DNA from: a phage
Strand: one strand, 5' to 3'
Length of the DNA: 45,885 nt
Assembly (NCBI GenBank): GCA_021146325.1
Contig: GCA_021146325.1_4321.1
Shown: positions 2,449-41,924 of the stretch, piece by piece
How the letters are laid out: each line of letters starts with the position of its first letter
Position numbering within the stretch: position 1 is the stretch's first letter
Made by a program: the position numbers and the translations under genes
The notes under the pieces: model-generated
Seen by the model: the letters and a program-made list of their open reading frames with translations, nothing else
Told to the model about the DNA's origin: nothing
The model's database searches: none

Positions 2449-2584
2449 TTCTCTATCTCTCTATTGTTGCGTGCTTTCGATTAGTTAATGATGCCGTACG
2501 CACAACGCATAGTCCAATTGGTATCACCTATTAATTAATCAAGTATACGCGTATAATTTTGTAACTACGTGTAGACATTGGCAT

Positions 2585-2880
2585 GAGTTACGTTTTTAGC
2601 CACTTAAGCCAAGCTATAGCTCAATGTAAATAGTGAGTATACCGTGTATACCGATTTTAGCGGAGGGTGCATAGGTATAGGTGCTGCGCAATACTGTATA
2701 AAATCACATGGTATAAAAATTATAAGCGGAACACTCAAGAACAGTAGTTACATGATATACAAGATATACATATATAATAATAATAATAAGAGTAAAAGGT
2801 TGATATATATAGATATTATAATGTAACTATGGCGTAAACTGGCGTAACTGGGCGTATACGATTTCCAGCGGATGCATATG
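2585..2880. repeat. AT-rich non-coding element A, homologous to element B at 28650..28935
   Basis: palindrome AGCTATAGCT at 2612..2621, (ATA)n core, near-identical 62-bp block 2766..2827 matching 28815..28879. Confidence 0.8.
2831..2860. repeat. three tandem 10-bp iteron-like repeats GGCGTAAACT / GGCGTAACTG / GGCGTATACG
   Basis: perfectly phased direct repeats read from sequence. Confidence 0.7.
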
Positions 2881-2912
2881 GTATACATGGAGTTACATTG
2901 GTTACGCGTAAA

Positions 2913-2958
2913 CAATAGCACGAATAGCTAAAACTAATACGCAAAACCCTGTATAGTT
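2913..2958 (+). promoter_or_regulatory. promoter cassette copy (IR TAGCACGAATAGCTA, 22 bp, ATAGTT) upstream of the methyltransferase gene
   Basis: IR core 2916..2930. Confidence 0.5.
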
Positions 2959-2989
2959 GGTCACACAAAAAACGAGAGAGGATTTCAAA

Positions 2990-3679
2990 ATGGTTATTTG
3001 GTCTTTATTTGATGGTTCAGGGCTGGCTGTGAAAGATTGGGCTGAGGCTTGTCACGAGTGCTACTGTTTCAACTTTGATGAGTCTGACCACGGTAGTTAC
3101 GGGGATTTAAATGCAAAATTTGAACATGAGAACATCACCTACGTTAATGCCTGGATAGATGGCAACTTCGACTTTGATGTGAAGCCTGATATCATTTTAG
3201 CGTTCCCGCCGTGTACGGATTTAGCCGTGAGCGGGTCAAGGCACTTTGAGCGAAAGCGACTGGTTAACCATAACTTCCAGATTGAAGCTGCGGAAACATG
3301 TAAAGTTGCTTTTAACTTGGCTAATAAGTACGAAGTCACATACATGATTGAGAATCCAATCAGCGTACTGTCATCACTCTGGAGAAAGCCTAATAAGACT
3401 TTCCACCCATATGAATACGGAGGCTATTTGCCGGAAGATGATTTACACCCGTTTTTTAGCGACCTAATAAAGCCAAAAGACGCATATCCCAAGAAGACAT
3501 GCATTTGGTATGGCAATGGGTTTAAATGGCCAGAGGCGATTCCTGTGGACGTTAACGATGGATTCTCTGACCAATACAAGAAGCTTGGTGGGAAGAGTAA
3601 GAAGACAAAGGTAATTCGCAGTCTAACTCCTCGCGGTTTTGCAAAAGCAGTCTTCATAGCAAATAGCACGAATAGATAA
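2990..3679 (+). CDS. DNA (cytosine-5) methyltransferase, short orphan type
   Basis: motif I LFDGSG, motif IV FPPCTDLAVSG, motif VI-like ENP, C-terminal LTPRGFAKA; ATG at 2990 has RBS GAGAGG (the ORF track began at TTG 2957). Confidence 0.7.
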   Translation: MVIWSLFDGSGLAVKDWAEACHECYCFNFDESDHGSYGDLNAKFEHENITYVNAWIDGNFDFDVKPDIILAFPPCTDLAVSGSRHFERKRLVNHNFQIEAAETCKVAFNLANKYEVTYMIENPISVLSSLWRKPNKTFHPYEYGGYLPEDDLHPFFSDLIKPKDAYPKKTCIWYGNGFKWPEAIPVDVNDGFSDQYKKLGGKSKKTKVIRSLTPRGFAKAVFIANSTNR

Positions 3680-3706
3680 AGACAAATCCCAAGGATGAGA
3701 TATCAT
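3661..3706 (+). promoter_or_regulatory. promoter cassette copy (IR TAGCACGAATAGATA, 22 bp, TATCAT, CATTGAAACGAAA) overlapping the methyltransferase 3' end
   Basis: IR core 3664..3678; motif supplies codons NSTNR and the stop. Confidence 0.6.
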
Positions 3707-3717
3707 TACTCCATTGA

Positions 3718-3977
<260 letters not shown>

Positions 3978-18621: not shown

Positions 18622-18650
18622 ATAAAAAACCTCCAGAAGGAGGCTTGTTT
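18622..18650 (-). terminator. rho-independent terminator
   Basis: hairpin CCTCC-AGAA-GGAGG then TTTTTTATTG on minus. Confidence 0.6.
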
Positions 18651-22738: not shown

Positions 22739-22784
22739 CTATAAGCCATCCTTGGCGGCGCGTCTTTAGCAAAACGTGCTATTT
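22739..22784 (-). promoter_or_regulatory. promoter cassette copy (IR TAGCACGTTTTGCTA, 22 bp, TTATAG)
   Basis: IR core 22767..22781; its TAG is the TerL stop codon. Confidence 0.55.
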
Positions 22785-24398
22785 GATGCCAGCGAGGCGC
22801 ATCATCCTCGATTTAGGGTCTTCTGCAATGTTCAGTACCAGGTTGACAGCCATTGTCAAACAGTCTATCTGGTCATCGTGAACATGTGAATCATCTGCCG
22901 TGAATGCCGCAATCTCCGTTAGCAAGCCATTAAGCCAAGTAGCAGACTCCGGAAGGATTACGTTACCAGCTTTAATCTGCGGCAATGCACTCATTACGCG
23001 AGTCAGCTTATCGTTATCCGGAACGTACGGCTCGATAGGCGTTCGCATAACCCTTCCGGCTGATTGAATCAGGCCAATACCAGAGGCTTTCTTCTCGATG
23101 ATGATTTTACGAAGGATGCCATCTATCTGATTGGATGCCCTAGCCATCTTCTCGAAATCCAATAACTCAGCCTCGAGCTCAGGAGCTTCAAATTTACCGC
23201 GCCGCTGGTCAAGAAGATAAATCTTCCCATCCTTATAACCCCATAGCTGCATGACGCTAAAGTCGCTGTAACTTTTGGTTGTCATCGCAGTATCAAGGAC
23301 CATAAACCTGTAATCGTACTTAGCTGGCGGTCGCAGAGTGTCGCTAATGCGTTGAAGCCAGTCTACGTTAATCAGGTTGCCGCCAAGTGCTACTGGTTCT
23401 TGCTGATACTGGCTAAGGAATGTATAGCTATCAGAATCCCACATTGCAACTAGGTCGTGAACAGATTCCTTGCCAGGGAAATAGCTATAGTACCTAACAC
23501 CATCACGCTCAATATATTCGCTTGATAGAACGTCATCAATGAATTGCTGCTTAATCCAGTCAGGAAGCGTGTCGACGTAATCCTCAGTTACGAGCGCCGG
23601 TATCTTAATCAAGTCGAAGCTAATACCCATACCGCCATTCATCATGAACCACGTACTATCGTTCACATGAAGGCGCTGTTGGATAGAGATAATCGGCGTC
23701 GCCTTTCCTTTTACGGAGCTCGCCCTACGAGAGCGTATTGTATTCTTTAGCATCACGTGATTGTTAGCGCGAAAAACAGCAGAAAGCATGTCGGCTGGTT
23801 TGTCAAAATCATCTAACAGTACCGCACCACTATACGAATCGGTTATATATCCACCCCTCGCGCCTGTAATTTGGCCGCCAGTGGCTTTAGAGATTGACTC
23901 AAACCTGACCTTGCCATAGTCATCCAGGACCTGTAGCTCATCATCCTTACACGTACCAAACTTACATGGGAACAACTCCTGGAACTCAACAGACTTAATT
24001 AAGTCGCGCACACGCTTGGAGTTACGCTTAACCAGTGAGTCAGCATACGATATATTCAGGTTCCTTACCTTTCTCAACTTAACCATTGAGTAGGCTGGGA
24101 AGTGAATTGAGGCAATCTCTGTTTTTCCGCTACCAGGTGCTATGTTGATGATGGTATCTTTACGCTCACCCGCAATAATCTCATCAATGATTCTGCAAAG
24201 GTATTTATGATGCCAGTTTGGGATGTACCGCTCTCCCTGAGTTACCTGGAACCACACTCGCAAGAATCCCTCGAAGCTATGAGTGGATATCGCCTTAACC
24301 GCCATCTTTTCTGCTGGCGTCATTTCCTCCCAAACTAAATTAGCCATAATTTCACCAATCCAACCATCACGCCAATTAAGAATCCAGTTGTGAAGCAT
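22779..24398 (-). CDS. terminase large subunit
   Basis: 539-aa ORF with ATPase-like N-terminal region, at the head of the morphogenesis block. Confidence 0.85.
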   Translation of the reverse strand: MLHNWILNWRDGWIGEIMANLVWEEMTPAEKMAVKAISTHSFEGFLRVWFQVTQGERYIPNWHHKYLCRIIDEIIAGERKDTIINIAPGSGKTEIASIHFPAYSMVKLRKVRNLNISYADSLVKRNSKRVRDLIKSVEFQELFPCKFGTCKDDELQVLDDYGKVRFESISKATGGQITGARGGYITDSYSGAVLLDDFDKPADMLSAVFRANNHVMLKNTIRSRRASSVKGKATPIISIQQRLHVNDSTWFMMNGGMGISFDLIKIPALVTEDYVDTLPDWIKQQFIDDVLSSEYIERDGVRYYSYFPGKESVHDLVAMWDSDSYTFLSQYQQEPVALGGNLINVDWLQRISDTLRPPAKYDYRFMVLDTAMTTKSYSDFSVMQLWGYKDGKIYLLDQRRGKFEAPELEAELLDFEKMARASNQIDGILRKIIIEKKASGIGLIQSAGRVMRTPIEPYVPDNDKLTRVMSALPQIKAGNVILPESATWLNGLLTEIAAFTADDSHVHDDQIDCLTMAVNLVLNIAEDPKSRMMRLAGIK

Positions 24399-24465: not shown

Positions 24466-24990
24466 TTACAGTTTGCTAATCACAGACTCCAGAGCTTCCT
24501 TCATCGTTTCGACGTCGTTAGCAGAAGAGTTATTGCTTATAGTGATCTCCTGCGGTTTGTCGATTCCAAGCTCCTTGGAAATCATGCCAGGGTTAACAAT
24601 GCCAGATGCTGCAAGCTGGTATTTCTGCTCGCGAATCACGGAATCAATGAATGCAATCACCTCATCATAACCAGCCGACTTCCTCCATTTCTCGATGGCG
24701 CTATGGGTGACACCGCAGTAAAGGCAGAATCCGGTTAGCGTGAAGACTCTTGGTTTGTGCACCAGGCTCTCTTTTACCACACCCTGGAAGCTGGCTGTCT
24801 CGATTGCCTTGATTGCCTGGTCCTCAGCCCATGAGAAGTATTTCACGGCGAATTCAAATAGCTGTTCGGGTGTCATGCTTCTGTTTTTGGCTAGCGTTGT
24901 AATGTCTGAGTACTTTTTATTGTACATGGCTTTAAAGTTGCCAGAGCGGACCTTTTCTTGCGCCTGACTGGTGAAGTTTTCGTCTTTCAT
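24466..24990 (-). CDS. terminase small subunit
   Basis: 174-aa ORF immediately upstream of TerL; strong RBS AAAGGAGG. Confidence 0.7.
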   Translation of the reverse strand: MKDENFTSQAQEKVRSGNFKAMYNKKYSDITTLAKNRSMTPEQLFEFAVKYFSWAEDQAIKAIETASFQGVVKESLVHKPRVFTLTGFCLYCGVTHSAIEKWRKSAGYDEVIAFIDSVIREQKYQLAASGIVNPGMISKELGIDKPQEITISNNSSANDVETMKEALESVISKL

Positions 24991-25527: not shown

Positions 25528-25603
25528 TGGTGTTCCGCACTGGACTCGAACCAGTAACTAAGACTTAGGAGGTCTTTGCGTTATCCTGTTACGCCAGCAG
25601 AAC
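25528..25603 (-). tRNA. tRNA-Arg (anticodon CCU)
   Basis: 76-nt cloverleaf folded by hand: 7-bp acceptor stem, D-arm GCGT/ACGC, anticodon loop CUCCUAA, T-arm ACTGG-TTCGAGT-CCAGT, 3' ACCA. Confidence 0.8.
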
Positions 25604-28001: not shown

Positions 28002-28029
28002 GTGGTATGGTAGTAGACTACCATACCAC
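28002..28029. repeat. perfect 13-bp inverted repeat GTGGTATGGTAGT-AG-ACTACCATACCAC at the 3' end of gene 28029..28550
   Basis: read from sequence; on the minus strand the poly-U tail after it is short (UUUCGG). Confidence 0.7.
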
Positions 28030-28550
28030 TATTTAGTCTCCTTAATCATTTCTTGGTATGCGTTAATCATTGATACTGCACCCTTAAGTTCATCACCTTC
28101 AAGACCAGCGACGCTTGGTGATAGTTTCAACAATCGAGCCTTGAACCTTTCAATGGTAGCCGCCTCCTTCTCTTGCTCTGCCTTGCTTCTTGAGCCGGAT
28201 TTTACAGCGCCAGGAACCAGGCTAAGTGATGCGCAGTATGTCTCACTCTCGCCCTCAAAGTCGGTAAAACTAAGTGAGAACCTTGAGCGCACGTCAGCCG
28301 CCTTAATCTCAGGCATTCGGCTTACGGTGTTTGAAACGTATGACGCTTTTAGTTTTGGCATGTGGTATTCACCACCAGGTAGAACCTCCTCACCACTTAG
28401 CGATACGAACGTCTCACGACTCATGCCGAAGTATTGACGAGCAATCATGGTCACAGGGACTGTGCACACTTTGTCTTCTGACTTGAGCGCCTGACTCGCC
28501 ATGTATCGAATGATTTCACCCAAACTTACTGCTTCTTTATGTTCTGACAT
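28029..28550 (-). CDS. hypothetical early protein, first gene of the leftward accessory operon
   Basis: 173-aa ORF. Confidence 0.5.
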   Translation of the reverse strand: MSEHKEAVSLGEIIRYMASQALKSEDKVCTVPVTMIARQYFGMSRETFVSLSGEEVLPGGEYHMPKLKASYVSNTVSRMPEIKAADVRSRFSLSFTDFEGESETYCASLSLVPGAVKSGSRSKAEQEKEAATIERFKARLLKLSPSVAGLEGDELKGAVSMINAYQEMIKETK

Positions 28551-28649
28551 ATTCGTTACTCCTGATTGGTTGCTCTTCGTTAAGATGAAACCATGGTATC
28601 ATGAATATACGCGTTATCAAGTGTTATGTTGTGTTTATATCTGCATTGG

Positions 28650-28935
28650 TTACGCTTTTTGACCTCTCAGCCCAGCTATAGCTGGTGTAATTACCCTGTG
28701 TAAGATTTTACGCGGATTCGCCGGGGGTATGCATATGTATCTATATAGATAAAATTAGTAGTTTTCATAGAAAAACTATCGACCCATCCATACGACCAAT
28801 CTACACCATATACATACATATATATAATAATAATAATAATATAGTAAAAGGTTGATATATATAGATATTATTATGTAACCATTGCGTAATCTAGCGTGGT
28901 AGGCGTGTATGATTCTTCGGAAGCGCACCTCATAT
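28650..28935. repeat. AT-rich non-coding element B, homologous to element A at 2585..2880
   Basis: palindrome CCAGCTATAGCTGG at 28672..28685, (ATA)n, 65-bp block 28815..28879 nearly identical to 2766..2827. Confidence 0.8.
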
Positions 28936-29036
28936 ACACACCATAACTTCGATAACGTGTATATCCAAATTGGCTCAGCAAGAATCAAAATCAACTTGTA
29001 TGGTAGTTCATCCACCATTTATTCACCCTCACATCA

Positions 29037-29136
29037 ATCATTGCAAATCCCGCAACAATCAAAAACATCATTGCATTCGATGCAATATTGTTATATGTGC
29101 AATAGTAAGATTAATCATTGCAATATCTGCAATAAC
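29037..29136. repeat. iteron-like array: three ATCATTGCA and four TGCAATA copies, with perfect palindrome ATTGCAT-TCG-ATGCAAT at 29070..29086
   Basis: read from sequence; directly upstream of the first rightward promoter cassette. Confidence 0.65.
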
Positions 29137-29149
29137 ATATAAATCCAAC

Positions 29150-29195
29150 GAATAGCACTTTTTGCTAAAGACATTTAGGTATTGCGGAGTTATGG
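29150..29195 (+). promoter_or_regulatory. promoter cassette copy (IR TAGCACTTTTTGCTA, 22 bp, TTATGG)
   Basis: IR core 29153..29167. Confidence 0.5.
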
Positions 29196-29222
29196 TTCAC
29201 TCATCAACAACGAGGAGAGAGA

Positions 29223-29409
29223 TATGAAACTTAAAGACGAAGCATTTGAGCAATTAAAGCAGGAATGTGCGCTGATTGGATTGAACAATGACTATACTGA
29301 TATGGTTTTACGCGGACGCATCGATATCGACCTTGCTAAGCAATTCCAGTCAGATGATGAATATATGTGCTGCGATGGCCTCGGCTGCGACGAATGTTTA
29401 CCATGGTAA
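29223..29409 (+). CDS. hypothetical protein with C-terminal Cys cluster
   Basis: 62 aa from ATG 29223 (RBS AGGAGAGAG); ends CCDGLGCDEC. Confidence 0.5.
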
Positions 29410-30817: not shown

Positions 30818-32401
30818 ATGTTTGATTTCAACGAAGATAAACTATCTGTTGAGCAGATTATGGCAATCGCTGCCAATGACAACCTACCACCGCTTCGCGT
30901 GGCTATTAATGCCAATGGCTATCGACAGTCTCAATCGTTCTGGAAAGCACCTGTCGAGATTGATACAGGTAATGATAAGTATCCAGTAATCTCACTCGGT
31001 AATGATATTGATGTTGTTGGTAAGCTATCGGCTAATATCGCTCGCTCGGTTCAGTTCCCTGAGTCGTCAGCTTACATGCACTTTCTTGGTTGTGTTTCTG
31101 CTGCAATGCTTGGGCGTTTTACTGTCGAGTATCATGGAACCCAACAGCCAACATCTTTGTACGTGGTAACAAGTCAGCCGCCTTCAACTGGTAAATCAGC
31201 CATTAACTCGCTATCAATTGCGCCGATGATTGCTGAGACTGAGCGGTTGAATGAAGTACGTAAACGTGATCGAAAAAAGATTATGGCTAAACTGTCCGCT
31301 CTGGCTAAAGAGATGAAGCAGGAAAAATCACCTTCTGAAATGGCTTCACTTTTTGAGGAGAAGGAGGATTTAGAGGAGAAGCTCGAGAAGCTATGCGATA
31401 TAGTATTCCCTGTCTCCGATACTACTCCGGAAGGTCTTGCGCGAATCAACAATCGCCAGGGTAGTTTTGCGGTAATCTCTGATGAGGCTACTAGCGTCAA
31501 CTCACTGTTAGGCATGACTTACGGTGATGGCTCGAAGAAAACGAACAGCGAGCTCGTGCTGAAAGCATGGGATGCAGGTAATGTGTCAATTGCCCGTGCG
31601 AACGCAGAAAATAACATGAGCTTTGTGGCTATGGGATGCATCTCCGTAATTGCTCAGGATGAAACAATCAATGCCATTATGAATGCTGGTGCGCGTGGTA
31701 TTGGTGTATCTGAGCGTTTCCTTCTGGTGCGTGAAAAATCATTTCTTGGCGACCGTGTATTTGTTGATGAAAATGGTGATTCAACCTATGAGGCTATTGA
31801 TGGCGGCCTGAAAGCAGACTATTTCCGTCTTGTTCATGAGATTATGAATGAAGTTGAAGTGAAACTTACTGTAAGCGCGTCATCAATGCGTTACCTTAAC
31901 CGCGCTCGTCAAGAGATGGAGCCTCATCTTGGTGATGGTGGCAAGTATTCTCACACAATGTTGCGCGGTGCTCTTGGTAAGTTTGATAAGCAAGCAATCC
32001 GCATCGCTTCTGTTCTGCACGTAATTCGTAACTGGTTCTCACCAGCCGGATCCAGCCCTCAAAAGTCAAGAGAGATTGAACTGGATACAATGCAGGAAGC
32101 GGTTATGATTTTCAACGAACTAAGCAAGACTTATTTATCATCCGCTAGTGCTGCTGGTCATGCTGGTGACAATGCCGAGATGAACAAGCTGGTTGATATC
32201 CTGATTAAGCAGGGCAAGAATGGTAAAGGTGTTGTTGGTGTTCGCTCGTTGTATGAGGCTGCACGCAAGGTTAAACCTTTTGAAGGTCAGGCTGGAATTA
32301 TGACTCGCATTAAGGACCACTTGATTCCTATGCTTGATGAGAAAAACTACACATGCCTGATTGGTGATAAAATTTACATTAATCCACGATTGCTGGGGTA
32401 A
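30818..32401 (+). CDS. P-loop NTPase-like protein of unknown function, possibly replication-associated
   Basis: 527-aa ORF with Walker A-like SQPPSTGKSA. Confidence 0.5.
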   Translation: MFDFNEDKLSVEQIMAIAANDNLPPLRVAINANGYRQSQSFWKAPVEIDTGNDKYPVISLGNDIDVVGKLSANIARSVQFPESSAYMHFLGCVSAAMLGRFTVEYHGTQQPTSLYVVTSQPPSTGKSAINSLSIAPMIAETERLNEVRKRDRKKIMAKLSALAKEMKQEKSPSEMASLFEEKEDLEEKLEKLCDIVFPVSDTTPEGLARINNRQGSFAVISDEATSVNSLLGMTYGDGSKKTNSELVLKAWDAGNVSIARANAENNMSFVAMGCISVIAQDETINAIMNAGARGIGVSERFLLVREKSFLGDRVFVDENGDSTYEAIDGGLKADYFRLVHEIMNEVEVKLTVSASSMRYLNRARQEMEPHLGDGGKYSHTMLRGALGKFDKQAIRIASVLHVIRNWFSPAGSSPQKSREIELDTMQEAVMIFNELSKTYLSSASAAGHAGDNAEMNKLVDILIKQGKNGKGVVGVRSLYEAARKVKPFEGQAGIMTRIKDHLIPMLDEKNYTCLIGDKIYINPRLLG

Positions 32402-36768: not shown

Positions 36769-37011
36769 CTAAACCTTCGTTATCTTAAATTTGAATCCCT
36801 TCTCTTTCAGGAACTCATTCGTGTTTATCGTGACGCCAGGTTTAACCCTGACATACTTGCGCGGCCTTTCATCCATGTACGTAAACTTACCGTTGAAGAT
36901 GACACTGATATCTTTTATATCGAAGTACTTAGATATCATCTTAATGTCGTCCTGAATGCCAGCATCTGCGCAGTGGGCCCAGACTGCGGCCCGTCCTGTT
37001 TCAACTATCAT
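36769..37011 (-). CDS. hypothetical protein
   Basis: 80-aa ORF. Confidence 0.45.
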   Translation of the reverse strand: MIVETGRAAVWAHCADAGIQDDIKMISKYFDIKDISVIFNGKFTYMDERPRKYVRVKPGVTINTNEFLKEKGFKFKITKV

Positions 37012-38220: not shown

Positions 38221-39930
38221 TCAATCCTCCATCGTAAATGATTTGTTGGCGATAATATCTTGAGACTTCTGGTTTTTACGGTGTGTGATTCTCAATGGGG
38301 CACGGAATAGATGTGCATTTGTCATAATCATTCTAGCATTACGCAATCTGCCAATTCTGAATGCCTCAGTCCTGTTATCGATGTGTGTTGAGCAGAAAGC
38401 CTTCCATTTAACAGAGCAAACGCGATGGTCTGATTCAGGGAAGAATGTTTCATAAGCTCGGAATCTGTCACCACTGTGAGCCATAACCTCATATGAAGCA
38501 ATAATCCCTGACTGGTTCTTTGTTAACCCAATCTTGAAGTCATAAACTCGCAACCAGTCCCCCTTACGATACATTTTTCCTGATAACTTAGCATTCGGGT
38601 CTATGAGCATCTCACCACAGCATCTGCAATTCTTAGCTGCAATATCATTCTTCTCACCGCATCCTTTCTTGATGATAGCTTTGGTCTGTGGGTCCGCTAT
38701 ATCTTCACACAGTCTAAACTGAAAGAAGTGCTCGCAACGCTTACCGTCAATTACATTATTACAACGCCGTGCGAACGGAGAGTTCTCATAAGAACATGCC
38801 GGGCATACCCTAGGTTCATCACCTCCTTTCCTTGATGACTTAAACTTCTGGTCCTGAACTTCTTCTATAATTGGGTCAAAGTAAAGCTCTGCCATATCGT
38901 CAAGCGTTCCGGCGAAATCGAGAACAACATGGTCTTCTTTTACCATCCCTGAATCCTTGTGTTTTTTCTTAAGAATTCGCATACCACGACCAAGCAACTG
39001 AATGAGTAGAGTAATGCTACCAACCTTCCTCAGGATAATGCTTGTATCCCACGGGGGGCAGTTTACGCCAGTTGTGAGGCAACCAATCTGAAATATGAAC
39101 TTATATTCTCCGTTAGCTGCCTTCTCAAGTATCTCTCTACGCTTCTTCTCACCAGTGGAGTTGGTAACTATCGCCCAAGTAACACCTTCTGGAAGTGCGG
39201 CTGCCGCCTCCTCGCAATGCTGTTTGCCAGCGCAAGTTACCAATGCAGCATTCCTTGTTTCCATAAACTTAGCAGCAAATCCCATTATCTTTTGTGTCAT
39301 CGTTTGGTTTTCGTGAATCTTTGCAGCCATCGCATCCATTTCTTTCTTGCTGAAGTCCTTAACCCCATCACTTCCATCAGGAGTGAACTCACTAAGGTCG
39401 TAGCCCAAATCACCAACTTCACCGTAGACAGTAGGAACAACGAACCCCAAGTCAACAAGGTAGCTGGTTGGCACTTGCATTACAGTTTTGCGCCAGAATC
39501 CACGGACATTTGGGTTACTAACTACAATGTGGTCGTTGTTACGGTACGGGCTACCAGTTAACCCAAAGATACGAAGTTCGCGACCGTACTTCTCCTTGCA
39601 TCGACGCTTCATTTCGGTAATGATTAACGTGTATTGCGCGCGACCAGTGCCAAGAAGCCCGGTATTCACACCATCCTTAAAGACCATCTCACCCTTCTTC
39701 GTGCTCATCTGCTCGAATGTTTCCTCATTCTCTTCAGCTTCTACGATATCCATATGGTCCACCATGTGGCAATTATGTGCCACGACCCCGTCAGCAATGA
39801 AATTATGGTGCTCAGGCATCTCTATATCCCAAACAAGTTCCTTGCCAATGGGTGAGATGTCTTTAATTTTGCTTGATTTTGTATTCCACGCCATTTTCCA
39901 TGTGCTTACTAATTCTCTTAAAAAACTCAT
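38221..39930 (-). CDS. SF2 helicase C-terminal gene: C-intein (53 aa) plus C-extein
   Basis: own ATG 39930 with RBS GAGGT; intein block G HNFIADGVVAHN then Cys; C-extein has helicase-like motifs GLTGSP and QLLGRGMR and zinc-finger-like Cys clusters. Confidence 0.75.
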   Translation of the reverse strand: MSFLRELVSTWKMAWNTKSSKIKDISPIGKELVWDIEMPEHHNFIADGVVAHNCHMVDHMDIVEAEENEETFEQMSTKKGEMVFKDGVNTGLLGTGRAQYTLIITEMKRRCKEKYGRELRIFGLTGSPYRNNDHIVVSNPNVRGFWRKTVMQVPTSYLVDLGFVVPTVYGEVGDLGYDLSEFTPDGSDGVKDFSKKEMDAMAAKIHENQTMTQKIMGFAAKFMETRNAALVTCAGKQHCEEAAAALPEGVTWAIVTNSTGEKKRREILEKAANGEYKFIFQIGCLTTGVNCPPWDTSIILRKVGSITLLIQLLGRGMRILKKKHKDSGMVKEDHVVLDFAGTLDDMAELYFDPIIEEVQDQKFKSSRKGGDEPRVCPACSYENSPFARRCNNVIDGKRCEHFFQFRLCEDIADPQTKAIIKKGCGEKNDIAAKNCRCCGEMLIDPNAKLSGKMYRKGDWLRVYDFKIGLTKNQSGIIASYEVMAHSGDRFRAYETFFPESDHRVCSVKWKAFCSTHIDNRTEAFRIGRLRNARMIMTNAHLFRAPLRITHRKNQKSQDIIANKSFTMED

Positions 39931-40910
39931 CTTGTGCCGACCTCGTTGTTATTGATACTGAGTAAAGCTCTCTCTTTTTCTTGCCGCCAATATAGCTTCT
40001 AACCTTAACTCCGTCATTAGCAATAAATGCTATTAGCGCATCAGCTACTGATTGAACTTCACGCCTGCTAAATGATTCGGTGTGGATTTCTACAACCCTC
40101 TTCCCTGAGCTTACAGTGCAATGACCATCATCACCAAAGTAAGCAGCCCAACCAACTGGATCAAGCTCTCTGCATATCTTTCCAATATCGTAACCATCCT
40201 TAGAATTTCCGTACTTATCAGCATATGAATCCAGAACTTTCGTACATGATGTTGATACGCAAAACCAGTTGTCGCCAAATCCAGGGTTTTTCTTCTCCCT
40301 GTATCTAGGGTTTAGTTTTGCAAACCTTTCAACCTTGCTTAGTGCGTGCTCCTTATTTCCAATATTCCAAGATGGCCTATGCGTTCCTTTTCTGTATTTT
40401 TAATCAAGCAACCATCACCAGCCATTGCCGCAAGAATGTTTTGATGTAAAAAGTCATCAACCTCCATTGATGGGTTGACGGTTGAATTATGATGCCCCGT
40501 TCTGTAATCCAAATAGAAATCGAAAGGGTTCTTAAGAAGTACGCCTAACCCCTTGCTTGAATGCGGCATAACTTTTTCACCACAGCCACACTTGCACGCA
40601 GGAGCTTTTTCGTAAATTTGTCCTGCGAGCCGTCTAGCGACAGATTCATCCCAATACAAAGTTTTCCCGCTCCGACCCAGCAGCCGTTCGAATAAAGTTT
40701 GTGTGTACTCGTGCATTTTATTTCCTCTCCGCTTTCTAATTTAATTGATGATACATGTCTTACACCATTAGTAAAAACTCTTTTTGGCTTATGATAGAAG
40801 TAATCACCAGTGCTTTCGTTTATGCATTTTATTTTATGATTGATAAGGTCTTCGCTATCAATCCTCATCATCCCTGAATCGGTGGTTATCATCGTGTCTC
40901 CAGTTAAGCA
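39772..40910 (-). mobile_element. split intein in helicase motif II: N-intein 40548..40910, endonuclease-like remnants, C-intein 39772..39930
   Basis: blocks A (CLTGDTMI), B (IKCTSTHKLY) and G (HNFIADGVVAHN-C); N-intein ends in a stop after 121 residues; intein DNA is 1139 bp, not a multiple of 3. Confidence 0.7.
39863..40740 (-). pseudogene. homing-endonuclease-like remnant split over two reading frames between the intein halves
   Basis: frame 1 ORF 40339..40716 (Cys cluster CKCGCG; ...AMAGDG...), frame 2 open 39863..40399 without a start codon (...IAFIANDG...); family not assignable by eye. Confidence 0.4.
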
Positions 40911-41354
40911 CTCATCTATCGCGATAACAGCAGGAGCATAGTCACCAAGCCCCTTAAACAAGCCGTTAGCAGCCGTTCCCTCACTAGCCACTATGGTTGG
41001 ATAGTAAACTGATTTAACGTTAAGGCCAGCGCAATAGACGCTATTACGGATGCCGAAATTACGAAGTTCCTCTGCGTTCTGGCTGATAATCTCTGACTGG
41101 CGAGATAGGACCATGTAAGGAAGGCCAAGCTGTTCCATTCGTTTCCCAATCATGGCGAGAATAATCGTCTTGCCAGCCGAAACCGATAGGTCTGCTATGA
41201 ATGGCGCTTCGTACTTGCCAATAGCCTTTCCGATTGCGTCAAATGTCACGCACTGGAATGGGTATGGTGTGATTTCTCCGAACTGATAATCATTTTGAAT
41301 CTGCTTGATTTTATCTTGGTCAAAGTTTGCTACTAAGCGTTCTACTGGAAGCAT
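40545..41354 (-). CDS. SF2 helicase N-terminal gene: N-extein (Walker A SVSAGKT ... IAIDE) plus N-intein
   Basis: 269-aa ORF; the extein junction would rebuild IAIDE-CHMV, a DECH box. Confidence 0.75.
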   Translation of the reverse strand: MLPVERLVANFDQDKIKQIQNDYQFGEITPYPFQCVTFDAIGKAIGKYEAPFIADLSVSAGKTIILAMIGKRMEQLGLPYMVLSRQSEIISQNAEELRNFGIRNSVYCAGLNVKSVYYPTIVASEGTAANGLFKGLGDYAPAVIAIDECLTGDTMITTDSGMMRIDSEDLINHKIKCINESTGDYFYHKPKRVFTNGVRHVSSIKLESGEEIKCTSTHKLYSNGCWVGAGKLCIGMNLSLDGSQDKFTKKLLRASVAVVKKLCRIQARG

Positions 41355-41394
41355 TTTAAATATCCTGATAGTTCTTTAGTTCGTTGCATTGATG

Positions 41395-41440
41395 TATAAT
41401 AACAGCCATAGAACCCATTGTTTAACAAAAAGTGCTATTG
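41395..41440 (-). promoter_or_regulatory. promoter cassette copy (IR TAGCACTTTTTGTTA, 22 bp, ATTATA) driving the helicase gene
   Basis: IR core 41423..41437, only 14 bp from the divergent HTH gene start. Confidence 0.5.
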
Positions 41441-41450
41441 AGGTAATGAG

Positions 41451-41924
41451 ATGTGTGAAATTGACAAGCGAACTATTAACGGCAATAACGGGACCGTCCG
41501 CACGCAAGACAAGAAGCAACGCAAGCGACCTTCAGGCTACTACGTATTGAAAGATGAAGTAAAGGCTGGTCTACGCGCGCGTCTGGAAATGATTCTTGAT
41601 TTCTACGGCACGAAAGCCAATATCGCCAAGCAGTTAAATGTATCTCACCAGACTGTAGAACAATGGTTTAATCGCGGGATGATTTCGGCTCGAGGGGCTC
41701 AGAGAGCGCATAATGCGTACAAGCGAAATAAGGAAGGGTTCCGAGCTACATTCTGCCGACCAGACCTGCAATTCGACGGTAACGGAAAGCCGCTAACACT
41801 TCGATGCAAGAAACGCCATATGCTTCGCGTAGTTACCGAGGCAGAACTAGCAATAAAACCACCCTGTCGACCGTGGCGCAAGAATAAGATTGCTAACGAA
41901 GCAGCACGAAAAGCTAAAGGGTAA
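41451..41924 (+). CDS. Cro/YdaS-like HTH DNA-binding protein, putative transcription regulator
   Basis: HTH GTKANIAKQLNVSHQTVEQWFNRG; basic C-terminal half. Confidence 0.55.
   Translation: MCEIDKRTINGNNGTVRTQDKKQRKRPSGYYVLKDEVKAGLRARLEMILDFYGTKANIAKQLNVSHQTVEQWFNRGMISARGAQRAHNAYKRNKEGFRATFCRPDLQFDGNGKPLTLRCKKRHMLRVVTEAELAIKPPCRPWRKNKIANEAARKAKG

Follow-up and report, generated by a model that had tools for sequence, protein, structure and literature searches.

Genomic setting of the repeat array

The window, by which we mean the entire 45,885-bp stretch of DNA analysed here, originates from an Rtp/T1-like coliphage, a siphophage of the Drexlerviridae (Braunvirinae), and represents a nearly complete genome. 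Between positions 28500 and 29300 it shares 95% identity with ES and AN_ECEAS, two Escherichia phages, and 70-80% with Rtp, IME542 and others. The array considered below is situated in a 674-bp divergent non-coding region, hereafter hub B, which is bordered on the left by a leftward DUF7174 gene and on the right by several small rightward genes in a row, after which the operon starting at this hub continues with a DUF3987 helicase gene (Table 1). Two other divergent non-coding hubs, A and C, are present in the window. Small and large terminase subunits of the headful type are both encoded, as is to be expected of a phage possessing a pac site, and the DNA of T1-like phages has been described as terminally redundant and partly permuted. 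Elsewhere in the genome, the leftward ORFs 38221-39930 and 40545-41354 correspond to the N- and C-terminal parts of the DNA helicase phrog_16, and both show a match below threshold to Pfam Intein_splicing, which suggests that a helicase gene was split by an intein or by the insertion of a homing endonuclease.

Table 1. Positions of the features of the window that are discussed in the text
Feature	Position	Strand or direction	Remarks
Hub A	2449-2989		divergent non-coding hub
Three GGCGTA units, 10-bp phase	2831..2860		hub A; backbone common to both hubs; no counterpart of the TGCAAT array
Large terminase subunit	22779..24398	-	phrog_38 4e-107; Pfam Terminase_6C
Small terminase subunit, P22 gp3 type	24466..24990	-	Pfam PF16677 1.4e-12; phrog_606 1.6e-57
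tRNA gene	25531-25603	-	Rfam match, 58.9 bits
DUF7174 gene	28029-28550	leftward	left flank of hub B
Hub B	28551-29223		divergent non-coding hub
GCGT repeats of hub B, aligned with those of hub A	28883..28912		TGCGTAATCT AGCGTGGTA GGCGTGTATG
Conserved left block	28975..29036		GCTCAGCAAGAATCAAAATCAACTTGTATGGTAGTTCATCCACC...CACATCA; AATCA at 28983 and 28989; -10-like TATGGT at 28999-29004
Putative pac cleavage zone (first headful cut)	28985..29011	-	read-based termini of relatives aligned to the window
TGCAAT/ATTGCA array	29037..29136	no strand	proposed small-terminase recognition part of pac
CGCAACAATCAA	29051-29062		element inside the array
21-nt Drexlerviridae intergenic repeat aaATAGCACnnnTTGnTAAAA, one copy	29151..29171	+	followed by -10-like TATGGT at 29191-29196 and the first rightward gene at 29224
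Small rightward genes in a string	first at 29224	+	right flank of hub B
DUF3987 helicase	30818-32401	rightward	after the small early genes
Hub C	41355-41450		divergent non-coding hub
HTH regulator, conserved	41451-41924
21-nt repeat sites	1283, 2914, 3662, 14906, 22783, 26583, 27928, 29151	-, +, +, -, -, -, -, +
21-nt repeat sites, continued	29964, 30744, 34213, 35300, 37804, 40034, 41439, 43440	+, +, -, -, -, -, -, -

The 21-nt intergenic repeat described for TLS, T1, Rtp and Rogue1 (PMC11447400) is present in the window in about 16 copies as AATAGCACnnnTTGCTAAAGAC, each of which is followed some 23 nt later by a TATAAT-like hexamer and often also by CATCGAAA. The spacing of 22-23 nt between TTGCTA and the -10 hexamer is too long for a normal -35 element; AAGACA, at 17 nt, fits better, and ATAGCAC..TTGCTA was therefore left as an upstream element. 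The copy in hub B (AATAGCACTTTTTGCTAAAGA) was recognised as a member of this repeat and precedes the ATG at 29224 by 73 nt, as compared with the typical distance of about 76 nt. The array ends 14 bp before it, in agreement with the first-pass annotation, which had placed it just upstream of a promoter cassette. The array itself is a separate, single-copy element of different sequence. Immediately to the left of it, a degenerate cassette-like promoter (TTGGCT, 23 nt, TATGGT) was seen at 28970-29004, and transcription is predicted to start from it at about 29011, where the packaging termini of relatives were mapped as well.

Hubs A and B had been described as having a common backbone, and the alignment bears this out over approximately 450 bp. 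The backbone (2540-2970 and 28600-29025) consists of the AT-rich sequence ATATATAATAATAATAATAA, then of GTAAAAGGTTGATATATATAGATATTAT and finally of three GCGT units phased at about 10 bp; its core in hub B, 28829-28878, shows a conservation of 0.86 among 15 phages. In hub A, GGCGTA was indeed found at 2831, 2841 and 2851 in exact 10-bp phase. The further proposal, that these units occupy the position matching the array and that the two hubs consequently carry different site sets, turned out to be wrong: the GGCGTA units of hub A align with 28883-28912 of hub B, and the GCGT repeats are therefore present in both hubs. Those of hub B are kept in relatives, T1 having two copies of GGCGTAATTT. By count alone the hub A cluster (four GCGTAA) does not exceed the maximum of the shuffled sequences, and its weight lies in the exact phasing and the conservation. 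The backbone may represent an origin, or else an architectural or regulatory element. What distinguishes hub B in the alignment is an extra segment, comprising the TGCAAT array and a second promoter cassette, and the layout of T1 is alike, with two hubs and an extra segment only in the hub with the genome end.

Composition and conservation of the array

The first-pass annotation had listed three copies of ATCATTGCA, four copies of TGCAATA and a perfect palindrome in this stretch of 100 bp, and all of these were recovered. The 9-mer has its three copies at 29037, 29067 and 29114, with no further copy in the window on either strand; TGCAATA is found at 29081, 29098, 29119 and 29128 (4 of the 12 plus-strand copies of the window); and the palindrome ATTGCAT-TCG-ATGCAAT (ATTGCATTCGATGCAAT), with its 7-3-7 arrangement, extends from 29070 to 29086. 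In a hexamer-cluster test, kept unbiased by considering all hexamers with the two strands merged, ATTGCA/TGCAAT reached 7 copies per 100 bp, whereas the best cluster of any hexamer held 3-5 copies when the window was shuffled 200 times with its dinucleotides preserved. This is the second strongest hexamer cluster of the window, the strongest being a coding tandem repeat at about 100-230. The latter comprises eight copies of CAGCAA/ACAGCA and is located at the C-terminal end of the ORF 98-517 on the minus strand. An exact, non-overlapping 9-mer triple within 100 bp was seen in one of the 200 shuffles, and the core GCAA/TTGC has a density of 9 per 100 bp in the array versus 1.3 per 100 bp genome-wide. 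The window contains no second ATTGCA/TGCAAT cluster comparable with this one. Helical phasing of the GCAA/TTGC sites was also considered, and the best period of 9.5 bp (0.82) was dismissed as not meaningful with nine sites and 11 periods tried.

A scan of 28400-29400 for sigma-70 promoters and terminators returned none inside the array and a total below the shuffle expectation. Inspection of 28975-29140 by eye gave no acceptable match to the IHF (WATCAANNNNTTR) or DnaA-box consensus. ATTGCAT may resemble the CytR octamer GTTGCATT. In the literature searched, the sequences of the array matched unrelated primers only and were not printed in any phage paper.

Clustered short repeats in such a setting call to mind a replication origin, with the repeats as iterons for a phage initiator and the AT-rich tract at about 28810-28880 as the unwinding element. 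The array is located around 150 bp from this very AT-rich and highly conserved segment, and replication genes, among them the DUF3987 helicase, belong to the operon starting at hub B. Classical iterons, however, are direct repeats of about 17-22 bp, and the units found here measure 9 bp, occur in either orientation and follow one another at irregular distances of 30 and 47 bp, so that the array is unlike origin iterons. It should also be noted that hub A possesses the same AT-rich backbone without the array, that GC skew merely follows the direction of transcription and that no initiator-type gene overlaps or adjoins the array. In favour of this reading, T1-like phages are not known to have a mapped origin elsewhere, and the TLS study found none (PMC11447400). 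Altogether we consider an origin function of the array very unlikely.

The position of the array next to a cassette raises another explanation, that of an upstream operator or enhancer, in which a phage or host protein bound to the TGCAAT dyads and direct repeats would repress or activate the 29151-29196 promoter, and with it the small early genes and the DUF3987 helicase. At -55 to -165 relative to the -10-like TATGGT, the array is well placed for the control of an early promoter; it includes dyad-symmetric elements, T1 carries another repeat set (TATTCCA/GGAATA, four copies) at the equivalent place upstream of its cassette, and a conserved HTH regulator is encoded in the genome. Against this, the array does not overlap the -35 or -10 hexamers and ends 55 bp upstream of the -10-like element, and its motif is lacking at all of the other approximately 15 cassette promoters and in both hub A and hub C. 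Operator sites would overlap or immediately adjoin the promoter hexamers and be repeated wherever promoters are co-regulated, an arrangement that was not observed: being unique and absent from the other divergent hubs, the motif does not mark a general operator, and being missing at the other cassettes, it would control one promoter only. The array is furthermore more conserved than the spacer of the promoter itself and the genes that it drives. On these grounds we regard a purely regulatory function as unlikely, and a regulatory role toward the early promoter may coexist with the packaging role proposed below.

Conservation was assessed in alignments of hub B from 10 Drexlerviridae and subsequently of the hub together with its flanking genes from 15 phages (Braunvirinae, Rogunavirinae and Nouzillyvirus). 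In the latter, no part of the locus is as conserved as 28979-29178, where the majority fraction per column is 0.82-0.93; the peak of 0.89-0.93 extends across 29054-29153, the left block 28975-29036 has 0.82-0.86, and both flanking genes have 0.5-0.7. A search with the 136-bp core matched 129 phage records, 125 of which were about 80-95% identical. The adjacent DUF7174 protein is merely 30-60% identical in phages whose arrays are about 80-90% identical.

Within the array, the 9-mer copies at 29067 and 29114, the TGCAATA copies at 29098 and 29119 and CGCAACAATCAAAAAC are near-invariant in relatives; the 9-mer copy at 29037 is lineage-specific. The palindrome at 29070-29086 is perfect in this lineage only: relatives have ATTGCATCTGAAGCAAT, with the outer ATTGC...GCAAT arms kept. 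Conversely, GCAATATTGC is a palindrome in most relatives and is degraded in this phage. In T1, whose small terminase is 54% identical, the layout is kept and the motif set is partly different or diverged; most of the top 6- and 7-mer clusters of T1 itself fall in the hub with the array. About 40-90 bp to the array side of its position 1, T1 has TATTCCA/TGGAATA (four copies) together with two GATC sites where this phage has the right-hand TGCAAT repeats, and TLS has three GATC sites at that place.

Conserved non-coding DNA behind a promoter might also be transcribed and act as RNA, i.e. as a leader or small RNA initiated from the cassette-like promoter at about 28970-29004. This stretch of hub B aligns with the functional cassette of hub A, and T1 has a complete cassette before its array. 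The substitutions among relatives, nevertheless, break the palindrome and are not compensatory; folding of 29008-29150 on both strands was no better than that of shuffled sequences (z = -1.68), and no Rfam family matched the array, the tRNA gene being the only Rfam match in the window. An RNA function therefore appears highly improbable.

Genome ends of relatives and the proposed pac region

Physical genome ends determined in related phages fall next to the array. In the MSK paper, PhageTerm placed a terminus at 36,862 (forward, p=1.6e-9), and the alignment converts this coordinate, which matches the numbering of the record MW057918, into 29003 of the window. The packaging site reported by PhageTerm in the TR1 paper, 3,615, converts into 29011; in addition, the interval 3595-3744 is labelled 'the initial packaging site of the headful packaging mechanism' in the GenBank record of TR1 and overlaps the array, which occupies 3644-3779 there. 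The start of the SU57 record had been set from PhageTerm and an abrupt change in read frequency, and its position 1 aligns with 28985. The three read-based ends, obtained in different laboratories and with different phages, span 27 bp within the conserved block GAATCAAAATCAACTTGTATGGTAGTCCATCC, and the first ATCATTGCA follows 26-52 bp to their right. The forward direction of the MSK terminus in its own record is leftward in the window, which agrees with the orientation of T1 and Rtp, where the end is followed by the DUF7174 homologue and then by the terminase genes.

The terminal redundancy of T1 amounts to about 2.8 kb. In the T1 record, a repeat_region is annotated at 1-2800, with the first gene at 539, and we read it as the terminal repeat. 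Position 1 of T1 is inside the homologous motif array (...AATCATTGCATTCTAAGCAACAATCA...CCATGCAAC|AATCACATC); in the orientation of the window the junction reads ...CACAATCATTGCATTCTAAGCAACAATCACATCAACAGTTGCACACCATGCAAC|AATCACATC..., with motif types ATCATTGCA, GCAACAATCA and AATCA as in this phage. Through its relatives, therefore, a DNA end can be placed at or next to the element by the read-based termini as well as by the start of the T1 terminal repeat. The records of Rtp, Rogue1 and TLS likewise start inside the homologous motif array, position 1 of Rtp corresponding to about 29092, and restriction mapping had located the pac site of TLS at this spot (PMC11447400). For these older record starts (T1, Rtp, Rogue1 and TLS), the basis is restriction mapping, whose resolution is limited, and later records may simply have adopted their orientation. 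In 13 of 60 among the records listed, the array is found within 500 bp of a record end, which is supporting evidence only, because authors orient genomes to Rtp or T1. The ESCO41 record is linearised at the array and has no terminal repeat.

Not all reports are concordant. According to the TR2 paper, PhageTerm puts a 'packaging initiation site' at 18,637, which in OP251154.1 (18605-18644 of the record) is between the SSB and recombinase genes and disagrees with MSK, TR1, SU57 and T1; a different coordinate system or a spurious peak may account for it. For 7WV and KanT1, PhageTerm found no terminus.

The termini of relatives at a distance of 26-52 bp, together with record starts inside the array, point to a pac site, and hence to the small terminase as the binding partner. 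The uniqueness of the motif in the genome and its absence from hubs A and C are as expected for a single pac site. An operator or enhancer would leave the mapping of physical DNA ends unexplained. We accordingly favour the reading, with a probability of roughly 0.55, that the array at 29037-29136 and the left block at 28975-29036 together constitute the pac region of a headful-packaging phage. We infer both that the small terminase binds the repeats and that the DNA of this phage is cut at the same place as that of the relatives. Since the read-based cuts are beside the array and not inside it, recognition could also reside in the left block alone.

The sequence of events would be as follows. 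The P22-gp3-type small terminase would recognise the cluster of GCAA/TTGC and AATCA motifs at 28975-29136 on concatemeric DNA and position the large terminase for a first cut at about 28985-29011, some 26-52 bp to the left of the array. Packaging would then proceed leftward across the DUF7174, terminase and structural genes, with the array mostly on the side not encapsidated in the first headful, and later cuts would be headful and sequence-independent.

The first-pass annotation had seen in the array the binding sites of a phage DNA-binding protein. That general idea is well supported by the clustering of the motifs and by their very strong conservation across phages, although its assignment of the sites to an operator or origin is not the best fit. 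It had also put forward the HTH protein for binding assays; the packaging ends indicate the small terminase instead. There are 129 records with the array, 136 with a small terminase at 60% identity or more and 624 with an equally similar HTH regulator. The agreement of the first two numbers, both far below the third, is consistent with a terminase partner, and the far wider distribution of the HTH regulator also weakens the regulatory explanation.

The location of the array between two rightward early promoters invites a speculative extension of the pac reading, which in our opinion is quite unlikely, namely a dual switch. Terminase binding to pac late in infection would also shut off or insulate early transcription and, conversely, early transcription through the site could keep pac closed until late. 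If this were true, packaging initiation and the early-to-late transition would be coupled in T1-like phages.

That pac of T1-like phages is situated in this non-coding hub had been known or annotated before (T1 record, TLS paper, TR1 record), and the present work adds to this a well delimited candidate for a multi-repeat pac site and not a new mechanism. A definition of the T1-like pac recognition sequence was not found in the literature searched; the authors of SU57 stated that pac was 'not identified', and published assignments consist of restriction mapping, of a 6-bp resemblance to P22 pac or of a PhageTerm coordinate alone. In comparison, a sharply conserved array of about 160-200 bp beside a mapped cut is a concrete and directly testable candidate. 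T1-like phages are frequent contaminants of laboratories and fermentations, generalised transducers and candidates for therapy. If confirmed, the site would make it possible to orient Drexlerviridae genomes consistently and to design packaging-competent vectors or packaging-defective phages, and it would allow one to compare how the small terminase of the gp3 family acts on a multi-repeat site and on a single 22-bp site.

Comparison with known pac sites

The pac regions of T1 and T1-like phages occupy the same position as the candidate, i.e. a divergent hub between a DUF7174-type gene and small rightward early genes, and they have the motifs CTCAC..CAATCATTGCA and GCAACAATCA in common with it, although the sequences of the T1 and TLS arrays differ from that of this phage. 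The pac site of TLS was assigned by its 6-bp resemblance to P22 pac (PMC11447400). P22 and Sf6 are comparable in headful packaging and in a small terminase of the same Pfam family, PF16677; P22 pac, on the other hand, consists of one asymmetric sequence of 22 bp within gene 3, whereas the candidate is an intergenic multi-repeat array. A P22-pac-like sequence (AAGATTAATC) at 29107 was considered and rejected, as it is not conserved in relatives, even in the 95%-identical phage ES.

The pac sites of P1 and SPP1 (pacL/pacC/pacR in the latter) extend over 100-200 bp and contain a number of short repeats, to which the small terminase (or PacA) binds beside the point of cleavage, with binding elements on the non-encapsidated side, such as pacL in SPP1. 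They are found in or adjoining a terminase gene, while the candidate is about 4 kb away from the small terminase gene. Their motif sequences are unrelated to those of the array, and the hexamers of P1 include GATC and are controlled by Dam methylation, whereas the array has no GATC sites. In its general architecture, with short motifs in multiple copies flanking the cut, the candidate pac region may nonetheless be regarded as analogous to those of P1 and SPP1.
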